Assembly: GCA_026397115.1 (NCBI GenBank)
Contig: JAPLVM010000044.1
Location: 1 to 34,175, forward strand
DNA: 34,175 nt
Reading direction: 5' to 3'
DNA from: Patescibacteria group bacterium
GTDB taxonomy: Bacteria > Patescibacteriota > Gracilibacteria > JAPLVM01
The notes under the pieces are model-generated. The model had not been told where the DNA came from and made no database searches. It worked only from the letters and a program-made list of their open reading frames with translations. Positions 46 to 31,732 of the stretch are shown in pieces (within the stretch, counting starts at the first letter, position 1; each line of letters opens with the position of its first letter). The translations under genes were made by a program, and so were the position numbers.

Positions 46-741
46 TTAGGAGATTATGAACAGGCTCTTATGCAACAAGTTGGTGCAACCGATGCAATTC
101 GAACAGTCTACGCAGTTCAACAAAAAATATGAATTACGACATTGTTGGCAGTTTTGACTATAAAGCAAATTATAACAATCATGGCAGTTGATACATTCGT
201 AGCACAATTCGTCATCGCTCCCATAATATAAATCGATAGAGCTTCTTACTTTTCTTATTCCTCGACTATAAAAACTATCTTCATTATGCGAACTGTTAAA
301 AAGTAAATAACAGTTTTTATTCCAACCAGCCATGTTTGTGAAGTCGCTATTCTCGCTATTTTGATTAAATAAACCCTCAGCCGGAATCTGATCTAGAAGT
401 TCAACGAATTGCTCTGTGAATGAACGGCTAAAATTAAAGCTCATTGTAATTTCAGCACCATCCCATTTGTCGCTCCACCAACATTCATGACAATAAACAG
501 GACATCTTGAACCTGGTTGATAAGCAGTAACTACCTGTTTTTTGCATAAATCGCACGCTCTCTTATACAAATTTCTTTCATTCCGAAAAGCCGCCCTTCT
601 TTGTTTACGGCAATCTGGGCACAAAGTCGGGGCGGGAACCACAAACTTATGACTATTAAAAGTCGGTGAAACCCTGTCATAAAAAGATAGGTCTTGCGCC
701 GTAATTTCAAACTGCGATTGGCATTTGGGACAGGTGGACAT
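46..741 (-). CDS. Truncated (231 aa) paralogue of the Cys-rich zinc-ribbon protein family: N-terminal module plus first Cys block only. Possible gene remnant or pseudogene.
   Basis: Aligns with the first ~230 aa of the 561-565 aa neighbours (CPKCQSQFEIT..FYD..LCPDCR..FRNERNLYKR.CDLC..VYC.ECWWSDKWD). It stops at ..CTNLLHKSLFIIS* where full-length copies continue ..NL..K.YC..NE. I see no continuation in other frames in bases 1-45. Confidence 0.6.
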   Translation of the reverse strand: MSTCPKCQSQFEITAQDLSFYDRVSPTFNSHKFVVPAPTLCPDCRKQRRAAFRNERNLYKRACDLCKKQVVTAYQPGSRCPVYCHECWWSDKWDGAEITMSFNFSRSFTEQFVELLDQIPAEGLFNQNSENSDFTNMAGWNKNCYLLFNSSHNEDSFYSRGIRKVRSSIDLYYGSDDELCYECINCHDCYNLLYSQNCQQCRNSYFLLNCVDCSNCIGCTNLLHKSLFIIS

Positions 742-823
742 TGGAAATTTAAAATTTTGAATTTAGTAGAGACGCATTGCATGCGTCTCCTTATTTCGTA
801 TTTTGACGCGTCTTTGTATTGCA
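742..823 (+). repeat. Conserved intergenic element, copy 1: AATTTAGTAG, then the 9-bp-stem palindrome GAGACGCAT-TGC-ATGCGTCTC (769..789), then palindrome GACGCGTC (805..812)
   Basis: Near-identical to 2576..2650. It lies directly upstream of the start codon of the minus-strand gene at 46..741. Confidence 0.8.
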
Positions 824-847
824 TTTAATAAACAGGTAATCCCGCGC

Positions 848-872
848 AGGGAATGGTTTGAAACCATTCCCT
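848..872 (-). terminator. Hairpin 5 nt downstream of the stop of 878..2575 (AGGGAATGGTTT-G-AAACCATTCCCT)
   Basis: Perfect 12-nt inverted repeat read directly from the sequence. No clean U-tract follows on the minus strand, so intrinsic-terminator function is uncertain. Confidence 0.45.
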
Positions 873-877
873 ACCAT

Positions 878-2575
878 TTAATAAACCTTTTTTAGATAAC
901 ATGCTTCGCAATAGACCTTCTCATCACGATCTGGCGCATAAGAACTTTCGAAAACAAAGTCGCATCCTTCACTATCACATTTTCTCCTCCATAAACGATT
1001 CGGATTGCGCAACTTAATTCTATTCGCATGACGAATGTCAGGATGCAAATTCGGAATCGGTAAATTCATCTTCCGATAAAACTCCAGTTCTAATTTCTGA
1101 ATCACAAAAGGACGCTTTGTTTCAGCGCATTCAATCGCCCACTTCAAAATTTCATCTGGCACTTTCTTGATGTCATCTAAAATTGACAATTTACCAGCTG
1201 GAATAATTTTTTCTACCTTTGGAATTTCTATTTGAAGATCTCGCCACTGCCAGCCATTTTTCAAAACCTCACCTTTTTCAAGGGGAAAATATTCTTGCGC
1301 CGCAGTTTCATTGTAAACCGATGGCGATATATTTACTGGAAAAAACTCACCCCAAGATTTTTCTTTACGCATTTGCTCAATAATCTGAGGCACCAGTTGT
1401 TCATATTCTTCCTTGCTATATTGTTTATTTAAAATGCAATATTGGTTATGACGGAGGCCGATACTACCGAAAGAATTTCCCGCAGAAAAACAATTTTGGC
1501 AATAAAGAAAATCATGACAACCATTCCATGCTTGGGCACAAAATTGTAAATTAAAATCATCAATCCCAGCGTTTATGCTTTCATAAATAAGTTCAGCACC
1601 ACGCCCAGCTGTACTGCAATCCATACAAAATTTTGCGCCTCGCCAAACGTGTTCGCCATACCGGCATCCCTCAGCATCGTTGGCATGAAAACATCGATAG
1701 CAATCCTTTGCATTAAAGATATAATCTCCAATACAATTTTCACCATTTTCAATCTGAGCATACTTTTTAATCTGATGTTTATTAAAATCAGCAAACTTAG
1801 TTTTCAAATTACTAAGTTCTTTATAGCTACCAAAATTCAACTCAGCCATCTTCTTCTCGTACTCTTCCTTTTTCAACTGCTCATTCCACAAGCAATATTG
1901 CTTTTGACTAAGATTTGTGCAAAAGGCACAGTATGAACATCCAGCACAACTATTCAAAAACCAGGAGTTATCACAGTTACGACAATTTTGTAAAAATCCG
2001 CTGCCATAACAATTGCGACAATTCTCTAATTCATATCCAAGTTCACACTCATCAACATAATTACAATCAACTAAATCACGACATTGCTGTAGCCAATAGC
2101 CGTATAGACAATCCTCATTATTAGAACTTTCAAACACCAAATAACAATCTCTACAATCAGCAATCAAGCTACAAAAATCACAGTTTTCCGTATTTGCGCC
2201 CAGCATAGCCATTTTAGGAACCTTATTTTGCACCTCTGCAAACTGCTCGAAAAATGATTGATTCAAATCAAAATTTTTACCATGATCTAAAGCATTCCAT
2301 TTATCTGACCACCAACATTTCTGACAATAAACAGGAAACGCCGCATCTCTCGAAAATATGGATATAATATTTCTTTTGCATAAATCACAGGGTCTTTTGT
2401 ATAAATTTCGTTCATTTCGAAAAGCTAATCTCCTGTGTTGCCTGCATTCCGGACAAAGTGCAGGTTCTGAAATTTGGTATTTCTTGCCATTAAAAATTGG
2501 GGAAATTTTGTCGTAAAACAGTAAATCGTCTTGGGTGATTTCAAACTGTGATTGGCATTTGAGGCAGGTGGGCAT
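878..2575 (-). CDS. Cys-rich zinc-ribbon protein, array paralogue (565 aa), unknown function
   Basis: ATG-initiated 565-aa ORF with about 41 Cys by my count. Four N-terminal CxxC pairs, two central Cys-rich blocks and a C-terminal C..C/CxxC ribbon. No signal peptide or TM segment. Paralogous to 2687..4372, 5300..6979 and 6993..8690. Confidence 0.85.
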   Translation of the reverse strand: MPTCLKCQSQFEITQDDLLFYDKISPIFNGKKYQISEPALCPECRQHRRLAFRNERNLYKRPCDLCKRNIISIFSRDAAFPVYCQKCWWSDKWNALDHGKNFDLNQSFFEQFAEVQNKVPKMAMLGANTENCDFCSLIADCRDCYLVFESSNNEDCLYGYWLQQCRDLVDCNYVDECELGYELENCRNCYGSGFLQNCRNCDNSWFLNSCAGCSYCAFCTNLSQKQYCLWNEQLKKEEYEKKMAELNFGSYKELSNLKTKFADFNKHQIKKYAQIENGENCIGDYIFNAKDCYRCFHANDAEGCRYGEHVWRGAKFCMDCSTAGRGAELIYESINAGIDDFNLQFCAQAWNGCHDFLYCQNCFSAGNSFGSIGLRHNQYCILNKQYSKEEYEQLVPQIIEQMRKEKSWGEFFPVNISPSVYNETAAQEYFPLEKGEVLKNGWQWRDLQIEIPKVEKIIPAGKLSILDDIKKVPDEILKWAIECAETKRPFVIQKLELEFYRKMNLPIPNLHPDIRHANRIKLRNPNRLWRRKCDSEGCDFVFESSYAPDRDEKVYCEACYLKKVY

Positions 2576-2650
2576 TGGAAATTTTAAATTTTAAATTTAG
2601 TAGAGACGCATTGCATGCGTCTTTATATTTCGACGCGTCTTTGTATTGCA
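2576..2650 (+). repeat. Conserved intergenic element, copy 2: AATTTAGTAG, then palindrome AGACGCAT-TGC-ATGCGTCT (2604..2622), then GACGCGTC (2632..2639)
   Basis: Aligns with 742..823 with only a few substitutions and one small indel. It lies directly upstream of the start codon of 878..2575. Confidence 0.8.
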
Positions 2651-2655
2651 ACGCT

Positions 2656-2675
2656 GGGCCAAAAATTTTTGGCCC
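2656..2675 (-). terminator. Hairpin GGGCCAAAAATTTTTGGCCC, 12 nt downstream of the stop of 2687..4372
   Basis: Perfect 20-nt palindrome with a GC clamp and an A/T-rich centre. Confidence 0.45.
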
Positions 2676-2686
2676 GTACGTGATAA

Positions 2687-4372
2687 TTAATATACAGCCT
2701 CAAGATAGCATTTTTCACAATAGACAGTTTCAGGTCTGTCCGGAGAATAGGATGTCTGAATAGGAATATTACATTTATTACAGGTTCTGTTCCAGAGTTT
2801 TCTAGGATTACGAAGAGATAATCTGTCTTTGTGTCTTTGATCAGGATGTCTTTTAGGAAGAGGAAGATTATGCTTTCTATAAAAGTCTAATTCTTGTTTG
2901 ATTATTCTAAATGGTTTATGTGTTATTTCACATTCAATTGCCCAATCAAGAATTTGATCTGGTATTTCTGAAATAATATCTGGTAATTTATCGGCTTTAA
3001 CTATCTTTTCTACTTTAGGAAAAGGAGCTTCATAATCACTCCAGTTGAATCCTTGTTCTTGCGCTTGCTTTTTCGTAAGAGGAAAGTATTCCTGAGCTAC
3101 TGTTTCATTGTAACCAAAAGGACTGAGGCTTGGGTGAAAAAATTCTCCCCATTCTTTAGTTTTCATCATATGCTCAATTATCCTTGGCACCAATTCTTCG
3201 TATTCTTGCTTAGAATACTGTTTGTTCAAAATACAGTACTGTTTATGGCGAAGACCGATTGAGGCAAAAACATCATGGCAGCTGCGGCACCATGAAGAAT
3301 AATAAATGTTTGCACATTCATTAAAAGTGCAATCGCAACAAATAATGCGATAAGCGCCATCGCCGCAAGCCTGACATTCATACACAAGCTCTGCTCCTGT
3401 GCCGCCCCATGCGTCAACATCATAACAATCTTTGTAATTATATCCATCGTAAACAAAAGCGCAGCTTTGGCTGTTTTTTACGTTAAAACAATTCTTTAGA
3501 TCCTTTGATTTATTGAGATAATCCCCAAAGCAGTTTTCGGTTTGCATCCCATTCATATACTTCTTCGGTAAAATGTGTGAATGACCTTCCAAAGCACCTT
3601 TTGCTATGTTAATTTGCAGAGACAGGTCAAGCGTAAAATTGTTTATCTTTTGCAAATATTCGTCTTTTGAACATTTCTCATTAAAGAAATAGTATTGCTT
3701 ATTACGTAAATTCACGCACCCGAAACAGAACGAACAATTAATACAATCGCGAAGGAACCATGCGTTTGAGCATCCTTGGCAATTATATGTGAAGCTACAG
3801 TTATAACAATCGATTAAATTATCACATTCATAGCACAATTCACATTTATCGATATGACAGCAGTCTACGCAATTACGATTGTGGTAGGAATGACTTAGAT
3901 AAAGGCAATCTTGATTATGGTCAGCTTCGAAAATGAGATAACAATTTTTATTTCTAGCCGAGAAATTCACATAATCGGAATTTTCATTAAAATCATTTTG
4001 CAGGGATGGATGGGGAACCGTCTCATTGAAATCTTTAAACTGTTCAAAAAATGGCCGGCTAAAATCAAAGTCACGACCTTTTTCGATCGGATCCCATTGA
4101 TCCGATAAATAAAATTTTTGCGTGTATATAGGTATAGTTTTGTCCGGTGAATAAATTGATAAAATTTTCTCGTCTGTTGCATCGTCTTTTCTCCAATATA
4201 ATTTGCGTTCATTTCTAAATGATAGCCGTCTTTTCTGCCTGCATTCTGGACAAAGTGTAGGCTCTTGAACTTGGTATTTCTTGCCATTAAAAACTGGAGA
4301 GATCTTGTCGTAGAATAATAAATCCTCCGGCGTGACTTCAAACTGCGATTGGCATTGCGTGCAAAAATTCAT
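2687..4372 (-). CDS. Cys-rich zinc-ribbon protein, array paralogue (561 aa), unknown function
   Basis: 561-aa ORF with the same architecture. The C-terminal ~190 aa are very similar to the other copies (YCILNKQYSKQEYEELVP.II..M.K.KEWGEFF...SP.GYNETVAQEYFPL ... WAIEC..T.KPFRIIKQELDFYRKHNLPLPKRHPDQR). Confidence 0.85.
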   Translation of the reverse strand: MNFCTQCQSQFEVTPEDLLFYDKISPVFNGKKYQVQEPTLCPECRQKRRLSFRNERKLYWRKDDATDEKILSIYSPDKTIPIYTQKFYLSDQWDPIEKGRDFDFSRPFFEQFKDFNETVPHPSLQNDFNENSDYVNFSARNKNCYLIFEADHNQDCLYLSHSYHNRNCVDCCHIDKCELCYECDNLIDCYNCSFTYNCQGCSNAWFLRDCINCSFCFGCVNLRNKQYYFFNEKCSKDEYLQKINNFTLDLSLQINIAKGALEGHSHILPKKYMNGMQTENCFGDYLNKSKDLKNCFNVKNSQSCAFVYDGYNYKDCYDVDAWGGTGAELVYECQACGDGAYRIICCDCTFNECANIYYSSWCRSCHDVFASIGLRHKQYCILNKQYSKQEYEELVPRIIEHMMKTKEWGEFFHPSLSPFGYNETVAQEYFPLTKKQAQEQGFNWSDYEAPFPKVEKIVKADKLPDIISEIPDQILDWAIECEITHKPFRIIKQELDFYRKHNLPLPKRHPDQRHKDRLSLRNPRKLWNRTCNKCNIPIQTSYSPDRPETVYCEKCYLEAVY

Positions 4373-4479
4373 GATTTGTTTTAAAACAATTATAAATTAA
4401 ATTATATCTACTTGCTACATTGACACCAAATTTGAACTACGGCTGGTCGTTATAGATAAAAAGCTTCGCATAGATTAAT

Positions 4480-5235
4480 TTAATTTCTTATCAGATAAAA
4501 CACATAACTATAATATTCATAATATTTCTTAAATATGTCGATTTCTCTTTGCACCGAGGAAATGCATTTCAGAGCCTCATCATTGCCCAAATATTTTTGC
4601 TCCAATATTTTTAATCGCTTTTCAATTGGAAAATAGTATTCATCAGCCCATGTATTTGGAGGAAGGATTATTTTATCTATCAGATTATATCCTTCTTGTT
4701 CGATTTCTTTTACATAATCTCGTATATGTAAAACTTCATTTCCCGTCTCGTATCTCCAATAATCACGTAGTTTCTTCGGCGGATTCTCCTTTATCCAGGC
4801 AATATGCGAAAATGCAATGCATGAATCATTTTTTAGATATTTTCTCCAAGATCTTAAACCGTTCTCTATACCAATTATAAAAATGGAACCCTCGGCCCAA
4901 ATAACATCAAAGGCCAAGGCACTATATGGCAAGTCAAACATAGAAACATTTTCAACCTTTATCTTCTTTCCCAAATGATTTTTATCGATCTTCACCGATA
5001 ATTCATCCAGAAAAGGCTGATGCGTATCAATTGATGTAATCTTCACGTTATCGAACTCCGCTAATTTCATTGATTGTCTCCCAGGACCACAACCAATATC
5101 TAAAATATTATAAAAATCTTTTTTGGTGGCTGTTTTGATAATATTAAAAACCTTTTCAGTATAAAAATCGCTTCCCGGTCCTTGTCTTGGTAGGCTTTGG
5201 TGAATTTCCCAAAAAATTTTTCCCTTATCTGCCAT
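4480..5235 (-). CDS. Class I SAM-dependent methyltransferase (251 aa)
   Basis: Motif I ILDIGCGPGRQS, followed by an acidic residue at the end of beta-2 (ITSIDT) and motif post-I/II spacing typical of Methyltransf_11/25-like enzymes. Substrate cannot be told from the sequence. Confidence 0.8.
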   Translation of the reverse strand: MADKGKIFWEIHQSLPRQGPGSDFYTEKVFNIIKTATKKDFYNILDIGCGPGRQSMKLAEFDNVKITSIDTHQPFLDELSVKIDKNHLGKKIKVENVSMFDLPYSALAFDVIWAEGSIFIIGIENGLRSWRKYLKNDSCIAFSHIAWIKENPPKKLRDYWRYETGNEVLHIRDYVKEIEQEGYNLIDKIILPPNTWADEYYFPIEKRLKILEQKYLGNDEALKCISSVQREIDIFKKYYEYYSYVFYLIRN

Positions 5236-5299
5236 TTTTATTAAAAGAATTAAAGGTGATATATTGTAATCTGTTGACTAAAAAAAATGTCTAAAACGC

Positions 5300-6979
5300 C
5301 TAATAAATCTCCTCTTGATAACACTTCTCGCAATAAATTTTACGCTGGCCTCTTTTATATACAGTTTGAACTGGCTGTCCGCACTTTGAACACGCAATCT
5401 CCTGCAAATCTTTAAACTCTAGTATCTTAGACTTTTCCTTAATCCTTTCAAATGGCGATACACGAGGAATTGGCAAATTATTCTGCCTATAATAATCTAA
5501 TTCTTGCTTAATAATACGATATTTTTTGCCACTCACAGTACACTTTAAAACAGCTTGTAAAATGTCGTCTTGCACATCACGAATATGATCAGGAATCTGA
5601 TAGATCGAGGCGAACGATTCAACTTCATCATCTTTCCAGTCTAGACCTCTAGCTAATACTTCCTCCTTAGCTAAAGGAAAAAAATCTTGCGCTTCACTTT
5701 GATTGTAATAAAAAGGAACAAAAGATGCTGGAAAAAATTGACCCCATTCACAGGCTTGTCCCGCGTAATCTTGATGAAGCGGGGTCTTTTTCATATGGCT
5801 AATAATACGTTGTCGCAGATCAGAATATTCAACCGGATTATATTGCTTATTAAAAATACAGTATTCTTTCTTTTTAAGACCACAACACCCAAAACAGTTG
5901 CTACAACCTAAGCAAGCAAACATGCAATATTCCAGATTATTCGGATTCGGAAAACACTCTGCTGAAAATTTGGTGTTATAACCATTAGTTCCAACGCTAC
6001 TGCAATTGTATATAAGCTCCGAGACATTCCCAAAAGCAAAATAAAATAAACAACTTTTCGCTTCGTTAATATTAATGCAATATTCCATATCCTCGGCGCT
6101 ATTTACCATAAAACAATTTTGAGCATTTTTAGTATTATTCAAAAAATTACCACTGGAGTTTTCATTATTTTTACCTTGTAAATGTTTCACTGCTAGGCTC
6201 TCTTTGACCGACGCCCACTTAGCTTGCTCAGAAACCAAAACCTTGTAGCTACCGATATCTATCTCGCTCATCCTTTTCTTATAATCATCCTTGCTCAACT
6301 GTTGATTGTAAAAACAATACTCCTTTTTATACAAATTCGCGCATCCAAAACAATCATTGCAGCCTTGGCAGTTGTAAAGAAAATAAGAATCCGCACAATC
6401 ATGACAATATTCAGAAAACTTCAAATTATGACAACCTTTGATACTGGCACACTCATAACACAATTCTGAATCATAAGCTGAAATGCAATCAATTAAATTT
6501 TTGACTCTATAAATAATTTTGCAAAACATACAATCTTCGCCATCCACGCCACCAAAAACAAGATAGCAATTACGCTGTTGCGACACACCATTACAATAAT
6601 CACTATTTTCTAAAGTATGCTTCTGCACGCTTAGATTTGGCCAAGGCATTTCCCTGAGCATATCTGCAAACTGTTCAAAAAATGGCCTATTAAAATCAAA
6701 ATCGCGACCATATTCTAAACCATCCCAAACATCAGAATTCCAAATATCAACCTCATAAACTTTCAAATTCTTCTCTGGAGGTATGTAGCTTAAAATCGGT
6801 TTTTTCGAATAATCACAAATTGAATTATAAAGATACTGCCTATTGCGAAACAAACATAAAATTCTCATCCGTTCATTCGGATGAATAGTGGGCATAGGCA
6901 AATCATTATCAGCACAGTATTTTTTCTCCGCCTCGGAAACAACGAAAGTCTTACCAGTCTGTCTACATATCTGTTGCAT
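5300..6979 (-). CDS. Cys-rich zinc-ribbon protein, divergent array paralogue (559 aa from the ATG at 6979)
   Basis: The ORF track runs 5300..7075, but that start overlaps the upstream gene by 83 nt. The ATG at 6979 (MQQICRQTGK..) lies 13 nt after the upstream stop (6993). Central and C-terminal regions are homologous to the other copies. The N-terminus lacks the first CxxC. Confidence 0.8.
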   Translation of the reverse strand: MQQICRQTGKTFVVSEAEKKYCADNDLPMPTIHPNERMRILCLFRNRQYLYNSICDYSKKPILSYIPPEKNLKVYEVDIWNSDVWDGLEYGRDFDFNRPFFEQFADMLREMPWPNLSVQKHTLENSDYCNGVSQQRNCYLVFGGVDGEDCMFCKIIYRVKNLIDCISAYDSELCYECASIKGCHNLKFSEYCHDCADSYFLYNCQGCNDCFGCANLYKKEYCFYNQQLSKDDYKKRMSEIDIGSYKVLVSEQAKWASVKESLAVKHLQGKNNENSSGNFLNNTKNAQNCFMVNSAEDMEYCININEAKSCLFYFAFGNVSELIYNCSSVGTNGYNTKFSAECFPNPNNLEYCMFACLGCSNCFGCCGLKKKEYCIFNKQYNPVEYSDLRQRIISHMKKTPLHQDYAGQACEWGQFFPASFVPFYYNQSEAQDFFPLAKEEVLARGLDWKDDEVESFASIYQIPDHIRDVQDDILQAVLKCTVSGKKYRIIKQELDYYRQNNLPIPRVSPFERIKEKSKILEFKDLQEIACSKCGQPVQTVYKRGQRKIYCEKCYQEEIY

Positions 6980-6992
6980 AGCTGATTTATAA

Positions 6993-8690
6993 TTAAAAAA
7001 CTGTCTTCTGATAACACTCCTCGCAATAAATCTTTTCTGGACGGTCAGGTGCAAACGGCGTTTCAAACTCAACACTACAGCCGAGGTTAGCGCAGGAACG
7101 GTGCCACAAACGCAAAGGATTAAGCTGTTTTAATCGCATTTCATATCGCAAATCAGGATGCAATCGAGGAAGGGGCAATCCAGCGCGACGGTAAAATGCC
7201 AGCTCGGCTTTTTGAATGATAAATGGCCTCTTGGTTTCCGCGCACTCAATCGCCCAATTCAAAATTTCATCAGGCACCTCTGAAATTGAAATTGGTAATT
7301 TGGAAGCTGGAATAATTTTTGCTACTTTTGGAATTTCAATTTTCTCATCAAGCCATTCAAATCCATGTTGAACCGCTTTTTCTTTTGTTATGGGAAAATG
7401 ATCATAGGCAATACTTTCATTATAAGCAAATGGCGAAATGCTAGAAGGAAAAAATTTTGCCCATTCACCTGTCTTTTCCATGTGTGAAATAATCTTTGCA
7501 ATCAGTTCACTGTATTCCTGTTTAGAATATTTTTTATTAAAAATGCAGTATTCTTGATGATTGTTCAGGCCATGGCATCCAAAGCAATTTTTAACATTCA
7601 TACAACTTTGACAATAAATCAGATTCTCGCACGCCCAAGATCGATGAGTAAAAAGACAAGAATAAGTGTCATTACCTATTTCACCGCAGTTATAAGCAAG
7701 ATTGATATTTGATCCCCACACAGATACATCCTGGCAGTCTTTGATACCATATTTGAGCCAAGCACAATATTTGCAATCTTCAGCGTCTTTCACAATAAAA
7801 GACTGGCTGCAATTCTTGCAATTTTCAAGCATATTACCCACCGACGCCTCACAGCTCAAAATATTCGCATATTTATGCGGAACCGAAAGATATATCTCAT
7901 AAGCTCTTTTTTTTGTATCTTCTATCGATGACGGCGTAAAGAAAAAATCTCTTAATCTATGTTCATATTCAGCGCGAGTTAATTTTTCATTAAACCAATA
8001 ATACTCTTTATTTCGAAGCTCACTACAACCAAAACAATTTGAACAACCATAACAGTAATGACAAAAATGACAGTTATTACAATCCTTCAAACTACGAGAG
8101 AAAAATGAATAATAGCAATTTATACCATCAACACATTCATAGCATAATTCCGCATGGTCTATATCTCGACAGTCAAAGCAATCACGCGAATACCACAATC
8201 CAGTGCAATACATGCAACACTCGCTTCCAGCAGCGTTAAAACACAGGTAACAGTTTTTTAGGCTATTACACCCATTGCAATATTCAGAATTTTCCATGCC
8301 CATAGTATCAACAAACGCGTGCGGATGAGGAACTTCGAGAGCCATTTCTCGAAATTGCTCAAAAAATTGCCTATTAAAATCAAAGTCACGACCCTGCCTC
8401 AATGGATCGTAATATTTGTCATCATGCCAAGCACTTATATGGTACACAGGAAATTTCACATCAGGCCTATGAGCTGAAATTATTGTTCTGCCTGTCGCAT
8501 CACACTTTCGTTTATAAATTTTACGAATATTACGAAAAGAAAGTCTGTGTATCAACCGACATTCTGGGCACATTTCCGGCTCAGGAATCGCAAATTTCTG
8601 ACCATTAAAAATTGGCGCAACTTTATCATGAAAAACACGATCTTCAGGGGCAACTTCAAACTGCGATTTACACTTTAAACAAGTTTTCAT
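6993..8690 (-). CDS. Cys-rich zinc-ribbon protein, array paralogue (565 aa), unknown function
   Basis: 565-aa ORF with N-terminus MKTCLKCKSQFEV.PED..F.DK..PIFNG.K...PEP..CPECR. The C-terminus WAIECAETKRPFIIQKAELAFYRRAGLPLPRLHPDLR is near-identical in pattern to 878..2575. Confidence 0.85.
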   Translation of the reverse strand: MKTCLKCKSQFEVAPEDRVFHDKVAPIFNGQKFAIPEPEMCPECRLIHRLSFRNIRKIYKRKCDATGRTIISAHRPDVKFPVYHISAWHDDKYYDPLRQGRDFDFNRQFFEQFREMALEVPHPHAFVDTMGMENSEYCNGCNSLKNCYLCFNAAGSECCMYCTGLWYSRDCFDCRDIDHAELCYECVDGINCYYSFFSRSLKDCNNCHFCHYCYGCSNCFGCSELRNKEYYWFNEKLTRAEYEHRLRDFFFTPSSIEDTKKRAYEIYLSVPHKYANILSCEASVGNMLENCKNCSQSFIVKDAEDCKYCAWLKYGIKDCQDVSVWGSNINLAYNCGEIGNDTYSCLFTHRSWACENLIYCQSCMNVKNCFGCHGLNNHQEYCIFNKKYSKQEYSELIAKIISHMEKTGEWAKFFPSSISPFAYNESIAYDHFPITKEKAVQHGFEWLDEKIEIPKVAKIIPASKLPISISEVPDEILNWAIECAETKRPFIIQKAELAFYRRAGLPLPRLHPDLRYEMRLKQLNPLRLWHRSCANLGCSVEFETPFAPDRPEKIYCEECYQKTVF

Positions 8691-8810
8691 TGGCTATATT
8701 ATGCAAGTAAAATCATTTTACAGATTTCATTACAACATTGTCCAATAAAATAAAAAATATTTATTATGTTAAAATAGCGCTGAAAATGCGAATCTAAAGT
8801 TGCGGCAAAT

Positions 8811-8901
8811 GGAGAGATGCCAGAGTGGTTGAACGGGCCGGTCTCGAAAACCGGTATTCCGCTTTGCGGGATCGAGGGTTCGAATCCCTCTCTCTCCGCC
8901 A
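8811..8901 (+). tRNA. tRNA-Ser (anticodon CGA), CCA encoded
   Basis: Acceptor stem is GGAGAGA/TCTCTCC and the anticodon stem-loop is CCGGT-CTCGAAA-ACCGG. It has a long variable arm, a T-arm GAGGGTTCGAATCCCTC and discriminator G plus CCA. It aligns well with E. coli tRNA-Ser as I recall it. Confidence 0.93.
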
Positions 8902-11202: not shown

Positions 11203-11934
11203 ATGTACGACCCAGAAAAACATCACCGTCGATCAATTCGACTAAAAAATTATGACTACTCGCAAAATGGCGCGTATTCAATAACCATCTGCGCGCAGAA
11301 CCGCGAGCATTTCTTTGGAGAAATTATTAATGAAAAAATGATTCTAAATGATGCGGGAATAATGGTGAATGCGCAATGGAATGATCTAATAAATAGATTC
11401 AGCAATATTCATTTGGATCAATATATTTTGATGCCAAATCATTTTCATTGCATTCTAATTATTAATGATCAAAATGATTCGAGGCAGGCACAAGAGCCTG
11501 CCCCAACGATAATCAATCCTAGGCAGCCAGATTCAGGGCAGGCACAAGGGCTTGATTTTGATTCAGGGCAGCCACGAGGGCTTGCCCCAACGATAATCGA
11601 GGCAAGTACGGATACCCCTCGTGGGTATCCGTATCCGCATCCGCAGCCATCAAATTTCGGAAATTCTGGGCGGCCACAAAGGCCTGCCCCAACGATAATC
11701 GAGGCCCCCACAAAGAAAACCATCGGCGATATAATCGGAGCATTCAAATCAATTACCACGAACGAATATATCAACGGCGTGAAAAATAAAGGCTGGAAAA
11801 CATTCAATAAAAGATTATGGCAACGAAACTACTACGAACACATCATTCGCAACGAAAATGAATTACACAGAATCCGTGAATATATCATCAATAATCCGCG
11901 TAACTGGGGACGTAATAAAAAATCTAGGAAATAA
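11203..11934 (+). mobile_element. IS200/IS605-type Y1 (HUH) transposase, RAYT-like, 243 aa, with a low-complexity in-frame insert
   Basis: HUH motif MPNHFHCILII and a catalytic-Tyr helix region WQRNYYEHIIRNENELHRIREYIINNPRNW. The N-terminus HHRRSIRLKNYDYSQNGAYSITICAQNREHFFG is typical of REP-associated tyrosine transposases. Confidence 0.85.
11473..11715 (+). repeat. Cluster of GC-rich hairpin repeats inside the transposase ORF
   Basis: GGCAGGC-ACAAGA-GCCTGCC at 11483..11502. Direct repeat GATTCAGGGCAG(G/C)CAC(A/G)AGGGCTTG occurs twice (about 11530-11585). Perfect hairpin ACGGATACCC-CTCGT-GGGTATCCGT at 11608..11632. GGGCGGCCACAAAGGCCTGCCCC near 11668-11690. The tail GCCCCAACGATAATC occurs three times. 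Confidence 0.8.
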
Positions 11935-18898: not shown

Positions 18899-18985
18899 GC
18901 CCAGATGGTGGAATTGGTAGACACGCACGCTTCAGGGGCGTGTGGGAGTAATCTCATGGAGGTTCGAGTCCTCTTCTGGGCACCA
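18899..18985 (+). tRNA. tRNA-Leu (anticodon CAG), CCA encoded
   Basis: Acceptor stem is GCCCAGA/TCTGGGC and the D-loop is GGAATTGGTAGAC. The anticodon stem-loop is CACGC-TTCAGGG-GCGTG. It has a long variable arm and a T-arm GGAGGTTCGAGTCCTC. Confidence 0.93.
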
Positions 18986-24173: not shown

Positions 24174-27100
24174 ATGGCCGATAAATTCAACCTCATCTCC
24201 AATAACAAACCTACTGGCGACCAACCGCAAGCAATTATTAAACTTACCGAAGGCATTGACTCAAAAACTCACGACCAATTGCTGCTAGGAGTAACCGGCT
24301 CCGGCAAAACTTTTACCATGGCCAATGTAATCAATCATGTACAGAAACCAACTCTAGTCATGGCTCATAACAAAACACTTGCCGCCCAGCTCGCCAGCGA
24401 ATTTCGTGAACTTTTTCCAGAAAACGCAGTTGATTATTTTGTTTCATACTACGATTATTACCAGCCAGAAGCATATATTGCCAAAAGCGATACCTACATT
24501 GAGAAAGAAACCACTATCAACGAAGAAATAGATAAATATCGCCACAAAGCTACTTATGATCTTTTAACCCGCCAGGATGTAATTGTCGTAGCCTCAGTTT
24601 CGGCAATATACGGACTTGGATCACCAGAAGATTATATTGGTCTAGCCGTTACTGTGAGCAAAGGACAGAATATAGCTCGTGATGATTTTTTGCGTTCGCT
24701 GATCGCCATCCAATACCGCCGTGATGATTTTAAATTTTCTCGCGGAGCATTTCGTGTCCGAGGTGATATAGTCGAGGTTTTTCCGCCTATGTCTGATTCT
24801 GCTTTCAGACTTGAATTTTGGGGCAATGAAATAGAAAAAATCCAAGAAACCGATCATCTAACAGGACAAATTTTGAATGACGTGAAGCAAATTCTTTTCA
24901 TTCCTGCTAAACACGCCATTACCTCAGAAGAACGCATCGCTGAAATATTGCCAAAAATAAGGGAGGAAATGGATCTGCGCACAGCCGAGCTTAAAGCCAA
25001 TGGCAAAATCGTCGAAGCGCAAAGACTCATGCAAAGAACAATGTATGACATGGACATGCTTAAAGAAACTGGCTATGTAAATGGCATTGAAAACTATACA
25101 CGCTATTTAACCGGCGTCATGCCTGGTCAGCCGCCTTATACTTTACTTGATTTCTTTCCAAAAAAACCAGATGGCACTCGCGATTTCCTGCTTTTCATAG
25201 ATGAGTCACACATGACCGTGCCGCAGATCGGTGCCATGCATGAAGGTAATCTCTCCCGCAAACGCCAACTTGTCGAATACGGCTTCCGGTTGCCATCATC
25301 TTACGACAACAGGCCACTGACCTGGAAAGAATTTGAAGAGCGCATGCCACAAACCATTTATGTGAGCGCTACTCCGGGACACTATGAACTTTCAAAATGC
25401 GGGGTAAAAGGAGACTTATATGAATGGTTGAAAAATAATGAGTATTCTGAAAATGCCAATGATAAACTCACCAATCAGTGGTTTGTAATTAGGCACGGCG
25501 AGGCTGACCATAATATCACTAAAACTTATGTTAATGATATAAATAAAGATAATTCTCATTTAACCAAAAAAGGTATTAGGCAAGCCAAGGAATCAATTAA
25601 AGAATTAAAAAGGCTTGGCATAACTAAAATGTTTGCTTCAGACTTTATCCGTACTCGTGAAACAGCTGAAATTGTATCTGCTGGATTAGAACTGGAAACT
25701 ATTTTTGATCCACGGATTAGAGAAATCTTTCGCGGCGACTGGGAAGGAACGGTTTATGATCCACCTCCGCGAGACTGGGACAAGTGGGCCGAAAATATAG
25801 ATTTTGCCGAAACGGGTGAAACGCAAAAACAGGTACGCCGAAGAATGAAAGATTTTATCTTAGAAAAGAACCAGGAATTATCTGGAGAAAAAATATTGCT
25901 TGTATCACACAGCGGCTCCATGAAATGCTTGCTTTCAGAATTGCAGGATAAATCTTATCCGAAGAAGATACATGATGAAATGCGTAACTGCGAGATACAA
26001 AATTTTTCATCTATCGTTGACAGCTATTTGAATTCGTCAAATCAAAAGCCAAAAGTCATTATCCTGCACGGAGCGCCAACAAAAGATCGAAGCAATGAGC
26101 CAAATTATGTTCCAGATAATGTTCGCCATTGGCTCGGCTGGCTTAAAGAAAATCTTGAACAAAATGGATTTTCTGTCACAAATCCACAAATGCCTATTCC
26201 ATGGCAACCCGAATATGAAAATTGGAAAAAGGAAATCGAAAAACTGGATATTGACGAAAATACTACTTTGGTTGGAACAAGCGCTGGCGGTACATTTTGG
26301 GTCAGATGGTTAGGCGAAACTAAAAAACGGGTTAAGAACCTGTTTTTAATTGCCCCATCAAAAATAAAGTGGGAAGAACGTCATTATCTTAATGATTTTG
26401 TTAATTTTGAAATTGATCCAGAAATAAAAAATCGCGTTGAAAACATAATAATTTTTGTATCAAACGATAGCCCAGGTATCATTCAAAGTTGTAAAATTTA
26501 CAAAAAAGCACTTTTAGCCAAACTCATTAAACTCGAAAATCGCGGACATTTCACTGCCTTCAATAACCCTGAAAACAAAAAATTCCCTGAACTCCTAAAA
26601 GAAATTCTACATTATACTAAAGACCTGAAACGAAAAAAAATAGAGTTAGGCAATAAAAATAATGATCAAGAAACACCTAGAATAATCCAACAAATTATTA
26701 GACCTACCGGACTTCTTGACCCAGAAATCTCTATTCATCCAATTGATGGACAAATCGACCATTTACTTGAAAAAATTCGCCTACGAATTAAGGCAGGTGA
26801 AAGAACACTTATTACAACTCTTACCAAAAAAACATCTGAAAAGCTTACTGACTTTCTGCGAGAAAATGGATTTAAAGTTGAATATCTACACAGTGAAGTT
26901 GAAACCCTAGACAGAATTAAAATACTCCGCGATCTTCGCCTCGGTGAAATTGACATAATCGTTGGAATAAACCTACTCCGCGAAGGAATTGATCTACCTG
27001 AAGTTTCACTCGTTGCCATTCTCGACGCTGACAAAGCCGGATTCCTGCGTTCGCGCGATGCGCTCCTTCAAACCATAGGCAGAACCGCCAGAAACGTAAA

Positions 27101-27437
27101 CGGACAAGTCATAATGTATGCCAACATAATTACACCTGCTATGCGCCAAGCCATTGACGAAACCAACCGCCGTCGCAAAATGCAAGCCGCATATAATGAA
27201 AAACATCACATCACTCCAACAACGATTATCAAAAAGATCGCTGATCTTGAATTTAAAAAGGCCGAGGGCCTCAAGAGAGAAAAACGGAAGAAAGAGGAAT
27301 ACTTTACATATCTCGACGACGATGGAAAACAGAAATATATTGGGGAGTTGGAGCGTCAAATGGATCTTGCCGTGCAAAATATGGAGTTTGAAAAAGCTGC
27401 TGAGCTCAGAGACGAGATTGCAGAGCTTATGAAGTAA
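24174..27437 (+). CDS. uvrB: Excinuclease ABC subunit B (UvrB) with a ~424-aa two-domain insertion (1087 aa in total)
   Basis: N-terminal part: [42 protein letters not shown]. C-terminal part: [70 protein letters not shown], and a UVR motif at the end. Confidence 0.93.
   Translation: [1087 protein letters not shown]
25404..26675 (+). other. In-frame insertion within uvrB: histidine-phosphatase (PGAM-like) domain (~25476..26009) plus alpha/beta serine-hydrolase domain (~26049..26618)
   Basis: PGAM-like domain: RHGEADHN (RHG at 25491), [22 protein letters not shown]. Hydrolase domain: [14 protein letters not shown], GxSxG nucleophile elbow GTSAGG (26274), late D (FVSNDSP) and GHF. The flanking residues YELSKCG and [15 protein letters not shown] are contiguous in ordinary UvrB. 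Confidence 0.8.
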
Positions 27438-28054: not shown

Positions 28055-30025
28055 TTATTTTTTGTCAATATTGATTTTTTTGGTCACCTCAGCTGTCTTT
28101 CCATCAAGATCTCGAACCATAAGATACACCTCATAACTCCCAGCCGCGTTATAAACATGCCTCACATGAGGCTCTTCAGTTACTGCATTTGCCCCATCAC
28201 CAAAATCCCATTGATATTTTTGAATATTATTATCAGGATCAGATGACGCTCCTGCATCAAAATCAATCTCCAAATCGCTAATTTCATCTGCACGAAAATC
28301 AGCTGTCGGAGCTACTGGAACAATATGAATTTTTGACAAAGACGATTGATAAAAACCGTCATATTGCCCACCAGATTCATCAGTTGCAGACAATCGTATT
28401 TCATATTCACCAAGCTCAGCAAAACGATGCGTAATACGACGACCACGCATTAACACTGACCCATCACCAAAATCCCAAGTAAAAGACATTCCACGATCTG
28501 AGCCGTCTGAGCGCAAAGAAGGAGCCGCATCAAAAGTAAATACTTGGTTGCGATAACCTTCTTTTGGGTCTGAGGTAAAATCAGCCACAGGCGCGCCAGA
28601 ATCAGACACAAAAACGCGATATGAATCAGATGCTTTACGATTATTTTTATCAACCGCAGATAAGCTCACTGTATAAATTCCAGGCTGACTAAATGTGTGA
28701 GAAACCACTTTTTTGCCAGCGCCATTCTGCCCGCTAGACCCATCGCCAAAATCCCAAATATAATTACTTACAATAGTCTCATCCAAACCAGTCGAAGAAT
28801 AATCTCCTGCGTGCGCTGTAAACATAAAATCCGCAGGCGCAATTTTAATCTTATCAGTATTTAAAATTTCAACTGATAAAAGCGATTCCAAAACGTATTC
28901 AATTTTTTGCGACACCTGATATTTATATTCATCACCACCAGAATAATAATTATAGCTATTATTATTTTCATCCTTTTTTACGCGCGCCTCACATTCAATA
29001 TTATAAGTTCCAATTGCCGGTAAAGTATACCAGCCAAAAGTTTTATTTGCTGACGTATTTTCGTCCTTTTTTTCAAAAGTAATCTCTTGATCGTCAACTC
29101 GCCATGCGAATTCTTGCTCGCCTGATGAATAAAATTTAGTTTTACTGGCATCTAAATAAACATGCGCTGGATACTTTTTATCAGGCACAATCTCGCAAGA
29201 AACCTCTGGGGCCTTTTCAGAAATAGTGACTTTATAAGCTTTATTCGCCAAAGTATCAGAATTTATTGCAGTCAGATTCAGATCATAAGTTCCTGGGGCA
29301 TCATAAGACAAAATAGGGTCTTTACCAGCAATGTCATAATCATTAGCTGCCACACCATCGCTATCAGAATCAATCGCCATATTTGTATCCCAAACAAAAT
29401 AATCACCATTTTCAACCTTTAAATTAATTTGAAACTTTTCATTCACATATAAATCCTGCACAGGCTGACCATCAACACTATAAGACAGACCAACAAATTT
29501 AATCGCTCCTGTATGCGGTAACACTTTTGGCTTATCAGTTTTAGCGCCATTCGCATCAAGCTCAACCGGAGTTCCAACGATCAAATGCGGGCTAACTTCA
29601 CTATCAGCAATAACTGTGCGTCCAGTTCCAGCCGCATTAACAAAGCTTGCGGAACCAGAAACAATTGCCGTAGCACCAGTTCCATTTTTACTCAAATCTA
29701 TGCCAACTTTACCGGTTCCAAAACTTGTAGCGCCAGTATTGGAAAGAGCGCCTTCTTCCTTTACCGCAGATCCTGAGCCCATCAGGTTTGTTGTTTCTTG
29801 CTGTGTTTGACTCTCTTTTATGACTTCCGGCTCATCAGCTGAAAAAGCATTAATCACAAAAATGCTGATGATACCTAAAATAAGCATGCCAACACCAAAC
29901 GCAACCACTCGTAAATAACGACCAGACTCTTCAACACTTTCCGAGCGCCAAGCGCGAAAGCCGCCAAGCCCAGCAAAGGCTGCTCCTCCGACAATAAATA
30001 TAATTGGGAAAATAATTGCAAACAT
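28055..30025 (-). CDS. PKD-repeat membrane protein (656 aa)
   Basis: Two N-terminal TM helices and at least three PKD signatures: WDFGDGSSG, WDFGDGSV and WDFGDGAN. Confidence 0.8.
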   Translation of the reverse strand: MFAIIFPIIFIVGGAAFAGLGGFRAWRSESVEESGRYLRVVAFGVGMLILGIISIFVINAFSADEPEVIKESQTQQETTNLMGSGSAVKEEGALSNTGATSFGTGKVGIDLSKNGTGATAIVSGSASFVNAAGTGRTVIADSEVSPHLIVGTPVELDANGAKTDKPKVLPHTGAIKFVGLSYSVDGQPVQDLYVNEKFQINLKVENGDYFVWDTNMAIDSDSDGVAANDYDIAGKDPILSYDAPGTYDLNLTAINSDTLANKAYKVTISEKAPEVSCEIVPDKKYPAHVYLDASKTKFYSSGEQEFAWRVDDQEITFEKKDENTSANKTFGWYTLPAIGTYNIECEARVKKDENNNSYNYYSGGDEYKYQVSQKIEYVLESLLSVEILNTDKIKIAPADFMFTAHAGDYSSTGLDETIVSNYIWDFGDGSSGQNGAGKKVVSHTFSQPGIYTVSLSAVDKNNRKASDSYRVFVSDSGAPVADFTSDPKEGYRNQVFTFDAAPSLRSDGSDRGMSFTWDFGDGSVLMRGRRITHRFAELGEYEIRLSATDESGGQYDGFYQSSLSKIHIVPVAPTADFRADEISDLEIDFDAGASSDPDNNIQKYQWDFGDGANAVTEEPHVRHVYNAAGSYEVYLMVRDLDGKTAEVTKKINIDKK

Positions 30026-30040
30026 TGAAATTTTTTAAGA

Positions 30041-30748
30041 TTAGGATTCAGGAATAGGCTGGCAGCAGCTGTCAATGCAAGTACCTTGCTTGTTGAAACC
30101 GTTAACCTTTATATATTTACAATCCTCTTCTGCGCCACATGACCCATAATCACATTCAAAACTTGGGAAAGGATCCTCTATCGGTTGGCAGCATCCATCA
30201 GTACAGATTCCTTCCTTGAGTAAGCCATGCACCTGTATCAAAACGCAATCCAAATTGCTCTCGCATATTTTATACTCACACCCAGTCGTTCCAGGTGTAG
30301 CATTATCCACATCAACATTACCAGAAGGCAAACCCTTAACCAACAAGCGAGTTAGCGCAAAGGCAACTGTCACAATAACCAAACCAAAAATAGCATATCG
30401 CATGGAAGCCAATCCCTTTTTCGCTTTATCAGCATCGCTCCAAGCAGTCAAATATTCCCATCCGCTATAAAAAGCCGCTACCAAAAGCATGACAGCCACA
30501 AAGCCCAGGAAAAAATCAAGATATTTACGCACAGAAACCATAATATCATAATCCTCACCACCAGAAGCAGTCAGCGCATTATCATAGCGACCAGCAGAAG
30601 GCATCCGAAATCCAGAATCAAATGAGTTCCACGCAGGAAAAGTCCCTTGCGCAGCCATAGCCAAAGGCATATTCAAAATCACCACGCACAAAGCTATCCA
30701 CCCTAGAAATCCTGCTATTTTTACTGAAAATTTGTTATTAAACTTCAT
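30041..30748 (-). CDS. VirB2/TrbC-like (T4SS-pilin-like) membrane protein with two C-terminal 6-Cys modules (235 aa)
   Basis: Signal peptide, then a two-helix hairpin GFVAVMLLVAAFYSGWEYLTAWSDADKAKKG...AIFGLVIVTVAFAL. The tail is CEYKICESNLDC...GICTDGCCQPI followed by CDYGSCGAEEDC...GTCIDSCCQPI (nt 30053..30280). Confidence 0.65.
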   Translation of the reverse strand: MKFNNKFSVKIAGFLGWIALCVVILNMPLAMAAQGTFPAWNSFDSGFRMPSAGRYDNALTASGGEDYDIMVSVRKYLDFFLGFVAVMLLVAAFYSGWEYLTAWSDADKAKKGLASMRYAIFGLVIVTVAFALTRLLVKGLPSGNVDVDNATPGTTGCEYKICESNLDCVLIQVHGLLKEGICTDGCCQPIEDPFPSFECDYGSCGAEEDCKYIKVNGFNKQGTCIDSCCQPIPES

Positions 30749-31193: not shown

Positions 31194-31700
31194 CTATGAT
31201 CCTATGCCGCAACAACCTTGTTTAGTACAATTATGAATTACAAGCCCACCATACTGCTTACAATCAGCATCCACGCGACACGGATATTCGCAACCCTTAC
31301 CCTTAATGAAGGTATTAACAATCGCATACGCAGAAATAATGATTATAATTCCAATAATGGCCTGTATAATGATATTTGTACCTTTTTTCGTGCCATCCTC
31401 ATCTCCTGCAGCAGTCATGTACAAAAAGCCACCATATACAATAAAGCCAATCGCAACTACAGCCACGAATCCAAGCGCAAAGTTAGTCCAGCCAACAATA
31501 GCATCTATTAAAGAAACATTACCAGTCTCAACTCCTTGCAAATCTTGAAACTCCTCAGGAATTGAAAAAGATAATGGCTCTTTATTAGCATCACAGCCAT
31601 AAACAGAATCACAGGTTCCAACCGCATAAACGCTGGAAATGCTAACCAATCCAAAAAACATTACCGCAATCGAAACTATAAATATCCAAAACCTAGACAT
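31194..31700 (-). CDS. VirB2/TrbC-like (T4SS-pilin-like) membrane protein with one C-terminal 6-Cys module (168 aa from the ATG at 31700)
   Basis: Signal peptide, then WTNFALGFVAVVAIGFIVYGGFLYMTAAGDEDGTKKGTNIIIQAIIGIIIIISAYAIVNTFI. The tail is CEYPCRVDADCKQYGGLVIHNCTKQGCC (nt 31197..31295). Confidence 0.65.
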   Translation of the reverse strand: MSRFWIFIVSIAVMFFGLVSISSVYAVGTCDSVYGCDANKEPLSFSIPEEFQDLQGVETGNVSLIDAIVGWTNFALGFVAVVAIGFIVYGGFLYMTAAGDEDGTKKGTNIIIQAIIGIIIIISAYAIVNTFIKGKGCEYPCRVDADCKQYGGLVIHNCTKQGCCGIGS

Positions 31701-31732
31701 ATTGATGTTTATTTTTAACAATTTTTCATTTA

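Follow-up and report, generated by a model that had tools for sequence, protein, structure and literature searches.

The stretch of DNA analysed here (the window) comprises 34,175 nucleotides (nt) of contig JAPLVM010000044.1 from a Patescibacteria group bacterium. Between positions 46 and 8690 it holds a tandem array of genes for paralogous cysteine-rich proteins with zinc-finger ends. The family to which these proteins belong is undescribed, very large and lineage-specific, and it brings known elements together in a new combination, joining treble-clef zinc fingers to a predicted Cys/Ser-ladder β-solenoid. In related genomes such arrays lie beside genes for a TrmB-like regulator and a VirD4-like ATPase, a linkage on which our interpretation of the family turns.

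The array consists of six consecutive minus-strand open reading frames (ORFs): four full-length copies of the family, one shorter copy and one methyltransferase gene.

6993-8690, minus strand: family copy D, 565 amino acids (aa); opens the array; 43 Cys; 45% identity to copy A; matches the family hidden Markov model
5300-6979, minus strand: family copy C, 559 aa when read from its first ATG; 37 Cys
4480-5235, minus strand: class I S-adenosylmethionine (SAM) methyltransferase, 251 aa; lies between copies C and B
2687-4372, minus strand: family copy B, 561 aa; 39 Cys
878-2575, minus strand: family copy A, 565 aa; 41 Cys; the copy used for modelling
46-741, minus strand: apparently truncated copy, 231 aa; N-terminal module and most of the first solenoid; 20 Cys

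These ORFs bear out the gene set, sizes and shared strand given by an earlier reading of the window from its letters alone (the sequence-only reading), and our recount of the cysteines in copy A matched its figure of 41. From copy D onward, the genes are separated by 13, 64, 107, 111 and 136 nt. Cysteine makes up 6.6–8.7% of the five related proteins, with 11–18 CxxC motifs per copy. None of the four full-length copies contains a transmembrane or signal-like segment (maximum 19-residue hydropathy 0.74–1.14), as the sequence-only reading had also found. The ORF of copy C remains open up to a GTG at 7075, a start that would overlap the upstream gene. The stop codon of the 231-aa copy lies 45 nt short of the contig end, and its similarity to the family fades about 30 nt before that stop, so the truncation may not be real.

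Searches with the family returned 6,835 matches among 90%-identity clusters, and in a set clustered at 50% identity 5,784 representatives matched at E ≤ 1e-3 (2,489 at E ≤ 1e-30); the 150 best listed 50%-cluster representatives are mostly about 530–600 aa long, with a few up to 808 aa. At least 595 stretches were confirmed in GTDB species genomes, and two further copies (P0076 and P0100) are encoded in the same metagenome-assembled genome (MAG) as the window. The 80 best loci are mostly labelled Peribacteria, Peregrinibacteria or Gracilibacteria, some of them using genetic code 25, and a few loci carry labels of Paceibacteria-type lineages. The family occurs almost only in Patescibacteria. It was absent from viral contigs, one marginal match at a contig end apart. 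Database names of members are 'hypothetical protein' or generic zinc-ribbon labels; no model in Pfam, NCBIfam or PADLOC covers the core of the window proteins or of 46 family members, and we found no description of the family in the searchable literature. The sequence-only reading had been unable to assign these soluble, expanded proteins to a characterised family, and no curated library models them. The tandem arrangement, for which that reading had set recurrence in relatives as a test, does recur in many independent assemblies. Patescibacteria genomes measure about 1 Mb, and many spend 10–20 kb per locus on this one family, a major unexplained investment in a group whose host dependence is poorly understood.

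Three individual cases deserve mention. The Cys-rich proteins of Ca. Peribacter riflensis were considered as members of the same family and rejected, as they are large and mostly signal-peptide-bearing or extracellular (PMC4736985). At L010 (DUGF01000091.1), a full-length member with 47% identity lies in a MAG labelled 'Candidatus Micrarchaeota archaeon UBA10214', reflecting either mis-binning or transfer to a DPANN archaeon. P0238 (731 aa) carries an N-terminal GNAT acetyltransferase domain (PF00583, E 3e-8) ahead of a full family body; this is the only such domain fusion noted, it is uninformative as to function, and either a true fusion or the merging of two gene calls could account for it.

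The sequence-only reading described the paralogues as diversifying, a picture that comparison across genomes did not support. Among proteins of multi-copy loci, 182 of 211 have their best match in another genome rather than in their own array (median identity 55.5% versus 44.2%). In the window, three of the four full-length copies are closer to other genomes (50–54%) than to their array neighbours (37–48%); copy C, for instance, shares 52% identity with its closest relative, at locus L034, versus 37% within the array, and the exception is copy D (45% within the array, 44% elsewhere). Clustering resolved many orthogroups, mostly present about once per locus and in a loose order along the arrays (for example k-j-e). 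The ratio of identity within orthogroups to identity between them is 1.2–1.4 in every region of the protein, and this uniformity indicates that the cores are less constrained and not specifically diversifying. By sequence comparison, the paralogues are ancient orthogroups rather than fast-diverging copies. A different pattern is seen in three loci of code-25 Gracilibacteria (L003, JAGXIW010000003.1; L004; L059), where two orthogroups alternate (a g a g a g ...). The alternation indicates that a two-gene unit was amplified recently; the mixed arrays of Peribacteria, by contrast, are ancient.

Zinc-finger ends and predicted solenoid cores

From N to C terminus, each full-length protein is predicted to consist of a basic double zinc-finger module, a narrow β-solenoid, a variable helix, a second β-solenoid, a strongly conserved acidic helical segment and another double zinc-finger module. 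In copy A the modules fall as follows.

2297-2569, minus strand: N-terminal double zinc-finger module (residues 3-93); a zf_Tbcl-like ribbon and a zf_Tbcl_2/LIM-half-like finger
1799-2170, minus strand: first Cys/Ser-ladder β-solenoid, with capping motif and helix (residues 136-259)
1364-1726, minus strand: second β-solenoid (residues 284-404); ends in the most conserved motif, YCILNKQYSKEEYE
881-1132, minus strand: C-terminal double zinc-finger module (residues 482-565); basic

The two ends are homologous to each other (residues 3–93 versus 482–565, hhalign probability 99.5%, E 2e-22), as are the two cores (residues 136–259 versus 284–404, probability 99.9%, E 5e-31), and by this profile alignment the second β-solenoid is a duplicate of the first. 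In the end modules, a zf_Tbcl-like ribbon is followed by a finger of the pattern CxxC-x17-CxxC. Isolated end modules matched zf_Tbcl_2 in 12 of 18 cases and zf_Tbcl in 8 of 18 (best E about 1e-6), and the last finger aligned with the LIM domain of CRP1, in the second half of that domain (E 2e-4). Of 46 full-length family members, 36 match PF23477 at E ≤ 0.1 (best E 1e-6), and the window copies score under the curated cut-offs (PF13451, 22.6 bits with a cut-off of 24; PF23477, 21.5 with 27; TIGR04272, 21.8 with 36). By these scores, the end modules count as divergent relatives of the zf_Tbcl, zf_Tbcl_2 and TIGR04272 fingers rather than as curated members.

The ends and the middle differ in charge and in conservation. 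Median net charge is +3 for the N-terminal and +6 for the C-terminal module, −4 and −3 for the cores, and −8 for the segment at 385–480. Near-invariant Arg and Asn residues stud the end modules (R45, R49, R53, N54 and R56; R515, R519, R523, N524 and R531). In an alignment of 496 sequences, column homozygosity is 0.45–0.49 at the termini versus 0.33–0.37 in the cores, and the best-conserved parts are the termini and the motif at 375–435; the sequence-only reading had proposed, from the window's own copies, that the ends are more conserved than the middle, and the per-column values agree.

An AlphaFold (AF2) model of full-length copy A reached a predicted local distance difference test (pLDDT) score of 83 and a predicted TM-score (pTM) of 0.83, and a Foldseek search with it against PDB and BFVD returned nothing at E ≤ 0.001. 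A core-only AF2 model built from 120 sequences gave pLDDT above 90 for both cores, which are nearly all β with a six-residue strand-turn rhythm. Foldseek with this model retrieved only β-helix and solenoid proteins (AlgE4, tailspikes, MfpA/Qnr and Ag43; E 4e-4 to 1e-2), at TM-scores of about 0.1 and root-mean-square deviations of about 17 Å; such TM-scores mean that the core has no specific structural relative among them. Searches of PDB by sequence, with single sequences and with profiles, yielded the LIM-half-like match to the last zinc finger and nothing else. The models combine a regular repeat, inward small or hydrophobic residues and an all-β fold, and we read the predicted cores as two very narrow β-solenoids with Cys/Ser-ladder interiors, bracketed by zinc fingers. 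Such a Cys/Ser-ladder narrow β-solenoid, although without a match among solved structures, is confidently predicted.

The distribution of cysteines separates the ends from the cores. At the ends, C66/C84/C87 occur together in 24% of members (phi 0.98–0.99), C4/C7/C41/C44 and C486/C511/C514 also co-vary (phi 0.74–0.88 and 0.70–0.97), and C533/C538/C556/C559 are about 95% conserved. Two CxxC pairs gained and lost as a set (phi 0.74–0.99 in the terminal fingers) are the signature of one four-ligand site, and only the end modules behave as predicted Zn(Cys)4 sites. Individual copies have lost such sites: copy B is without the second N-terminal zinc site (C63/C66/C84/C87), and in copy C the cysteines of the N-terminal zinc ribbon are mostly gone, with C5, C22, C42 and C55 remaining.

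In core 1, by comparison, a single lattice of period 3 takes in all Cys-bearing columns; its super-period is 12 residues (columns 144, 156, 168, 180, 192, 204, 216 and 228, plus parallel series). Multiples of three account for 81% of core Cys–Cys spacings of 40 residues or fewer, versus 32% in shuffles, and Cys, Ser, Ala, Val, Thr, Gly, Leu and Ile fill 86% of lattice positions, as opposed to 21–34% at the other two phases, which are rich in charged and polar residues. Some 25 core cysteines occupy inward-facing, every-third-residue positions of the solenoids. Pairs of them show phi values of at most 0.35, and they are replaced mainly by Ser, then by Val, Leu or Ile. Core 2 retains the fold with fewer cysteines, and a CxxCxxCxxC at 210–219 is strongly conserved. 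Since the core cysteines swap freely with Ser, Val and Leu, do not co-vary and sit on a period-3 lattice, they look like buried ladder residues of the solenoids rather than metal ligands. The metal-stabilised scaffold envisaged by the sequence-only reading thus holds for the terminal zinc-finger modules and fails for the core, and high cysteine content and CxxC density alone do not indicate metal binding.

Array partners in related genomes and competing explanations

Clustering of the genes next to family members revealed two recurrent families. The first is a TrmB-family regulator of about 255 aa with a winged helix-turn-helix domain (PF01978, E 2e-11), mostly divergent and upstream of the array. 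The second is a VirD4-like ATPase of about 747 aa, mostly on the same strand and immediately downstream. The ATPase matches T4SS-DNA_transf (PF02534, E 1e-11), TrwB_AAD_bind (PF10412), TraG-D_C and DUF87, with DUF8128 at its N terminus; its best PDB match is TrwB, and its matches to the VirD4-like, TraD and CedD models fall far under their cut-offs. Of 26 ATPase matches, 23 carry both Walker motifs, A and B, and most have no transmembrane-like segment (three exceptions, in L016 and L070). The ATPase therefore departs from a canonical type IV coupling protein (T4CP), having no N-terminal anchor and, as neighbours, family genes, the TrmB-like gene and housekeeping genes.

The canonical order is a TrmB-like gene in reverse orientation, the family genes and the ATPase gene, with 15–365 nt between the last family gene and the ATPase. 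The TrmB-like gene was found in 28 of 82 loci and the ATPase in 22. One or the other accompanies 31 of 42 arrays of at least three copies, versus 2 of 27 single-copy loci, and 18 of the 24 arrays of at least two copies in which both ends are visible. The association also holds in reverse: four ATPase orthologues, chosen solely for lying on long contigs, all have two to six family genes directly upstream as well as a TrmB-like gene. Orthologues of the ATPase share 67–78% identity across species, and the linkage extends to loci labelled Liptonbacteria, Staskawiczbacteria and code-25 Gracilibacteria. Searches with PADLOC for anti-phage defence gave no match for the family, generic-domain matches only for the ATPase (mad8 and HerA) and a mad2 match for the methyltransferase; the conservation of the ATPase across species and its housekeeping surroundings are likewise at odds with an island-like defence context.

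In the passages of a 2025 survey that bear on such ATPases, 2,918 Patescibacteria genomes are recorded as encoding 5,713 VirD4-like homologues, of which just 148 lie near virB4, and the authors leave open their exaptation (PMC12102498). Those passages describe no neighbours of the orphan homologues and no zinc- or Cys-rich family ('zinc' occurs 0 times in them), and the link between the family and the ATPase appears to be unreported in the literature searched. The cluster of TrmB-like regulator, array and ATPase provides a concrete candidate partner for orphan VirD4-like ATPases.

We give about even credence to the proposal that the family members are alternative clients, either cargo or adaptors, of an orphan ATPase derived from coupling proteins. 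The paralogue repertoire would then be cargo that the ATPase passes on, or a set of specificity adaptors. Docking or nucleic-acid binding, as a function common to all members, would fall to the conserved basic zinc-finger ends and the conserved segment at 375–435; each paralogue would owe its own target to the variable surfaces of its solenoids, and the TrmB-like protein would control expression. A more far-reaching version, which we advance only tentatively, is that this family supplies the orphan VirD4-like ATPases with their missing partners: an anchorless motor derived from coupling proteins would work with at least 10 ancient paralogues, which would be cargo sent to host cells through a relaxase-less type IV secretion system (T4SS), or adaptors that select the cargo. 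If true, this would supply the first candidate substrates or specificity factors for the relaxase-less T4SS of Patescibacteria, and with them a new fold class, a cytoplasmic Cys/Ser-ladder solenoid with a 12-residue repeat.

Several observations weigh against the client proposal and the structural reading that goes with it. The window itself shows neither partner, with tRNA-Ser and housekeeping genes upstream of the array and the contig end 45 nt downstream. Single-copy members lie in housekeeping synteny without the ATPase, in one set as argS, an ORF of about 83 aa, the family gene and ileS, in another as frr, rseP, the family gene and ddl. No fixed orthogroup adjoins the ATPase, and the adjacency of the genes may reflect co-regulation only. 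Canonical coupling proteins have an N-terminal membrane anchor, which the ATPase lacks, and no gene for a virB4-type channel was recognised beside the arrays examined, whose neighbours were clustered and in a few cases annotated; given these two points, export is not implied. As for the cores, a capping metal site is possible at the conserved C210/213/216/219 and C371/C380.

Chief among the alternatives, and in our view rather unlikely, is that the proteins are autonomous nucleic-acid binders, with Arg-rich treble-clef ends that attach to DNA or RNA and with each paralogue working on its own as a regulator, chaperone or housekeeping factor. Shared regulation or history, and no client relation, would then explain why the ATPase and TrmB-like genes lie next to them. 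This explanation draws on the basic charge of the end modules (+3 and +6) and their near-invariant Arg and Asn residues, on the presence of single-copy members among translation and cell-wall genes without the ATPase, and on the name 'Zn ribbon nucleic-acid-binding protein' that the Joint Genome Institute (JGI) attaches to some members, although that name is automatic. Linkage to the ATPase in both directions (31 of 42 arrays; 4 of 4 orthologues) nevertheless exceeds chance adjacency, and net charge is negative in both cores (−4 and −3) and in the helical segment (−8).

We are more doubtful still that the paralogues are exported effectors, recruited by the VirD4-like ATPase to the Patescibacteria T4SS for delivery onto or into host cells, an idea modelled on Bartonella, where bep effector genes stand in tandem beside virD4. 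It would fit the position of the tandem paralogues directly upstream of a T4CP homologue and their lack of signal peptides, a conserved and positively charged C-terminal module, and the T4SS of Patescibacteria, which the relevant passages of the 2025 survey describe as having neither relaxases nor a known substrate (PMC12102498). A T4SS_pilin protein is encoded in the window, at 31194-31721. On the other side, the ATPase has no transmembrane anchor; no virB4 or other channel gene was recognised next to the arrays, few of whose neighbours were annotated; the orthogroups are ancient and evenly evolving, unlike typical host-interaction effectors; zinc fingers and rigid solenoids would make poor substrates for unfolding; and single-copy members occupy housekeeping synteny. 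Epibiotic growth also did not require the T4CP in the single Patescibacteria strain in which this was tried, according to the same passages (PMC12102498).

A role as metal store, redox buffer or polyferredoxin-like Fe-S protein, with about 40 cysteines chelating Zn, Fe, Cu or Fe-S clusters along the core, seems very unlikely to us. It can appeal to 7% Cys, to the many CxxC motifs with the conserved CxxCxxCxxC at 210–219, and to weak prokaryotic metallothionein and rubredoxin matches in single end modules. The core cysteines are individually dispensable, however, being substituted by Ser, Val, Leu or Ile without the co-variation of the terminal tetrads; solenoid 2 keeps its fold with far fewer of them; and the proteins have no CxxCxxCxxxCP motif and no ferredoxin-family match in Pfam.

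The sequence-only reading had treated the Cys-rich proteins and the embedded methyltransferase as one candidate system; we regard as highly improbable such a model, in which the enzyme would modify the proteins or their targets. The product of 4480-5235 is a class I SAM methyltransferase, with a Rossmann-fold domain above the Pfam cut-off (Methyltransf_25, 43 bits with a cut-off of 27, E 7e-11; Methyltransf_31, 34.6 bits; Methyltransf_11, 34.8 bits) and the motif DIGCGPG in its translation; no NCBIfam equivalog attains its cut-off. In favour of a common system, its gene lies between copies on the same strand, with gaps of 64 nt upstream and 107 nt downstream, and it matches PADLOC mad2, weakly and in the SAM-binding domain only. 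Recurrence of the linkage in relatives had been set beforehand as the test of this model, and it failed. No relative of the enzyme was found in any of 81 related loci (tblastn and blastp), and no methyltransferase cluster emerged among 211 genes adjoining family members. Its nearest homologues, at 47% identity or less, belong to the unrelated Latescibacterota, Thermoplasmatota, Bacteroidales, Nostoc (cyanobacteria) and Methanolobus (methanogens), and other arrays contain other interlopers (an MFS transporter, ORF6N-domain protein or proteins, a GNAT fusion). The methyltransferase gene has the look of an insertion that is unrelated to the array around it, and we infer that the enzyme has no part in the proposed mechanism.

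An assembly artefact or decaying junk, that is, mis-assembled repeats or pseudogenes, can be dismissed for practical purposes: the shorter copy does sit at a contig end, and other arrays often contain fragments of family genes. Yet the paralogues share only 35–48% protein identity with copy A, and the DNA repeats between copies are short stretches of 60–84% identity with no long identical DNA, which rules out duplication during assembly. Arrays are also seen in dozens of assemblies made independently, and the four full-length ORFs are intact with orthologues conserved across species.

Signals and other genes of the window

The following signals and RNA genes accompany the array or lie elsewhere in the window.

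2656-2675, minus strand: perfect hairpin GGGCCAAAAATTTTTGGCCC, directly after the copy B stop; read from the sequence
849-871, minus strand: hairpin GGGAATGGTTTCAAACCATTCCC, directly after the copy A stop; read from the sequence
8715-8744, minus strand: promoter-like site TGGACA-18 nt-TAAAAT upstream of copy D; 10/12, a consensus match only
769-789, strand-neutral: near-perfect palindrome GAGACGCATTGCATGCGTCTC in the leader of the 231-aa copy
2603-2623, strand-neutral: one-mismatch version of that palindrome, in the copy A leader
8811-8901, plus strand: tRNA-Ser(CGA), about 65 nt beyond the promoter-like site of copy D, on the opposite strand
18899-18985, plus strand: tRNA-Leu(CAG), farther along than tRNA-Ser

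The hairpins that the sequence-only reading placed after copies B and A are present. The palindrome could be an operator or a terminator. The regions that contain its two occurrences, 655–798 at the 5' end and leader of the 231-aa copy and 2489–2632 at those of copy A, are 81% identical; this identity covers the leader and the first 85 or so coding nt, and the whole proteins are 47% identical. Such similar leaders suggest that gene conversion acted locally or that the two copies have an operator or terminator in common. In L034, too, a similar palindrome lies ahead of a family gene. Across loci, no general operator motif was found upstream of family genes, the window palindrome recurring in L034 only.

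The genetic code of the window is the standard one, four of its genes ending in TGA, and an Rfam scan of the window found the two tRNAs and nothing else. The rest of the window is housekeeping in character, encoding a DHH phosphoesterase, a superoxide dismutase, KhpB/Jag, FtsH, a penicillin-binding protein, UvrB and an S1-domain protein. A 243-aa ORF at 11203-11934 (plus strand) matches an IS200-like Y1 transposase in its C-terminal part (PF01797, E 2e-6, profile positions 56–121), and its product is probably a degenerate or divergent transposase. The T4SS_pilin protein mentioned above (PF18895, E 9e-9; 31194-31721, minus strand) is encoded about 22 kb from the array, and genes for PKD-repeat proteins at 28055-30025 and 30041-30748 (minus strand) adjoin it. 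Judged by this match, the organism has type IV secretion pilin-like genes.

The UvrB gene (24174-27437, plus strand; 1087 aa) contains an insertion of about 360 aa between the helicase lobes, made up of a His_Phos_1 domain (residues 437–609, E 2e-34) and a Ser_hydrolase domain (residues 650–795). An isoleucyl-tRNA synthetase at L026 (12319-15795) likewise carries an inserted His_Phos_1 domain, at residues 507–675, and blastp links some part of the window's UvrB protein to tRNA-synthetase genes of L054 (12342-15917) and L062. That two housekeeping enzymes with no relation to each other both contain His_Phos_1 suggests a domain that is mobile and spreads by insertion.

Likeness to known systems

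The end modules resemble zf_Tbcl (PF13451), zf_Tbcl_2 (PF23477), TIGR04272 ('probable treble clef') and the second half of the LIM domain in their combination of a ribbon with a CxxC-x17-CxxC finger. They differ in that the window copies score 14–23 bits, compared with cut-offs of 24–27. The zf_Tbcl-type domains are uncharacterised and mostly form small stand-alone proteins, whereas here two modules bracket an unmodelled body of 400 residues.

For the cores, the closest likeness in form is to the antifreeze β-helix of the Tenebrio molitor type, a secreted, disulfide-bonded protein built of 12-residue Cys-rich coils (TCTxSxxCxxAx). Both are very narrow solenoids with inward small residues at every third position, a 12-residue super-period and a Cys/Ser core, although no sequence or Foldseek match was found, the two are not homologous and the analogy is one of form only. 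In contrast to the antifreeze protein, the family is cytoplasmic and without a signal peptide, its cysteines are not kept as disulfide pairs, and zinc fingers flank its solenoids. Foldseek retrieved structures of two kinds only for the core model: pentapeptide repeats (MfpA, Qnr), which like the cores are soluble acidic rods, and right-handed parallel β-helices (AlgE4, phage tailspikes). The repeat here is 3/12, however, rather than 5/20 or about 22, and TM-scores of about 0.1 mean no real superposition.

Among secretion systems, Bartonella encodes virD4 with tandem bep effector genes, and in Legionella DotL works with the adaptors IcmS, IcmW and LvgA. The arrays share with such T4CPs (VirD4, TrwB, TraD) and their clients an ATPase gene beside genes for tandem paralogous soluble proteins whose ends are conserved and positively charged. 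The ATPase here differs in having DUF8128 in place of an anchor, and no adjacent channel genes or relaxase were seen beside it; the Bep proteins and Icm adaptors are unrelated to the zinc-finger/β-solenoid family. The nearest kin of the partner ATPase are the orphan VirD4-like T4CP homologues, to which set it belongs and most of which, in the passages of the 2025 survey that count them, are encoded away from virB4 (PMC12102498).

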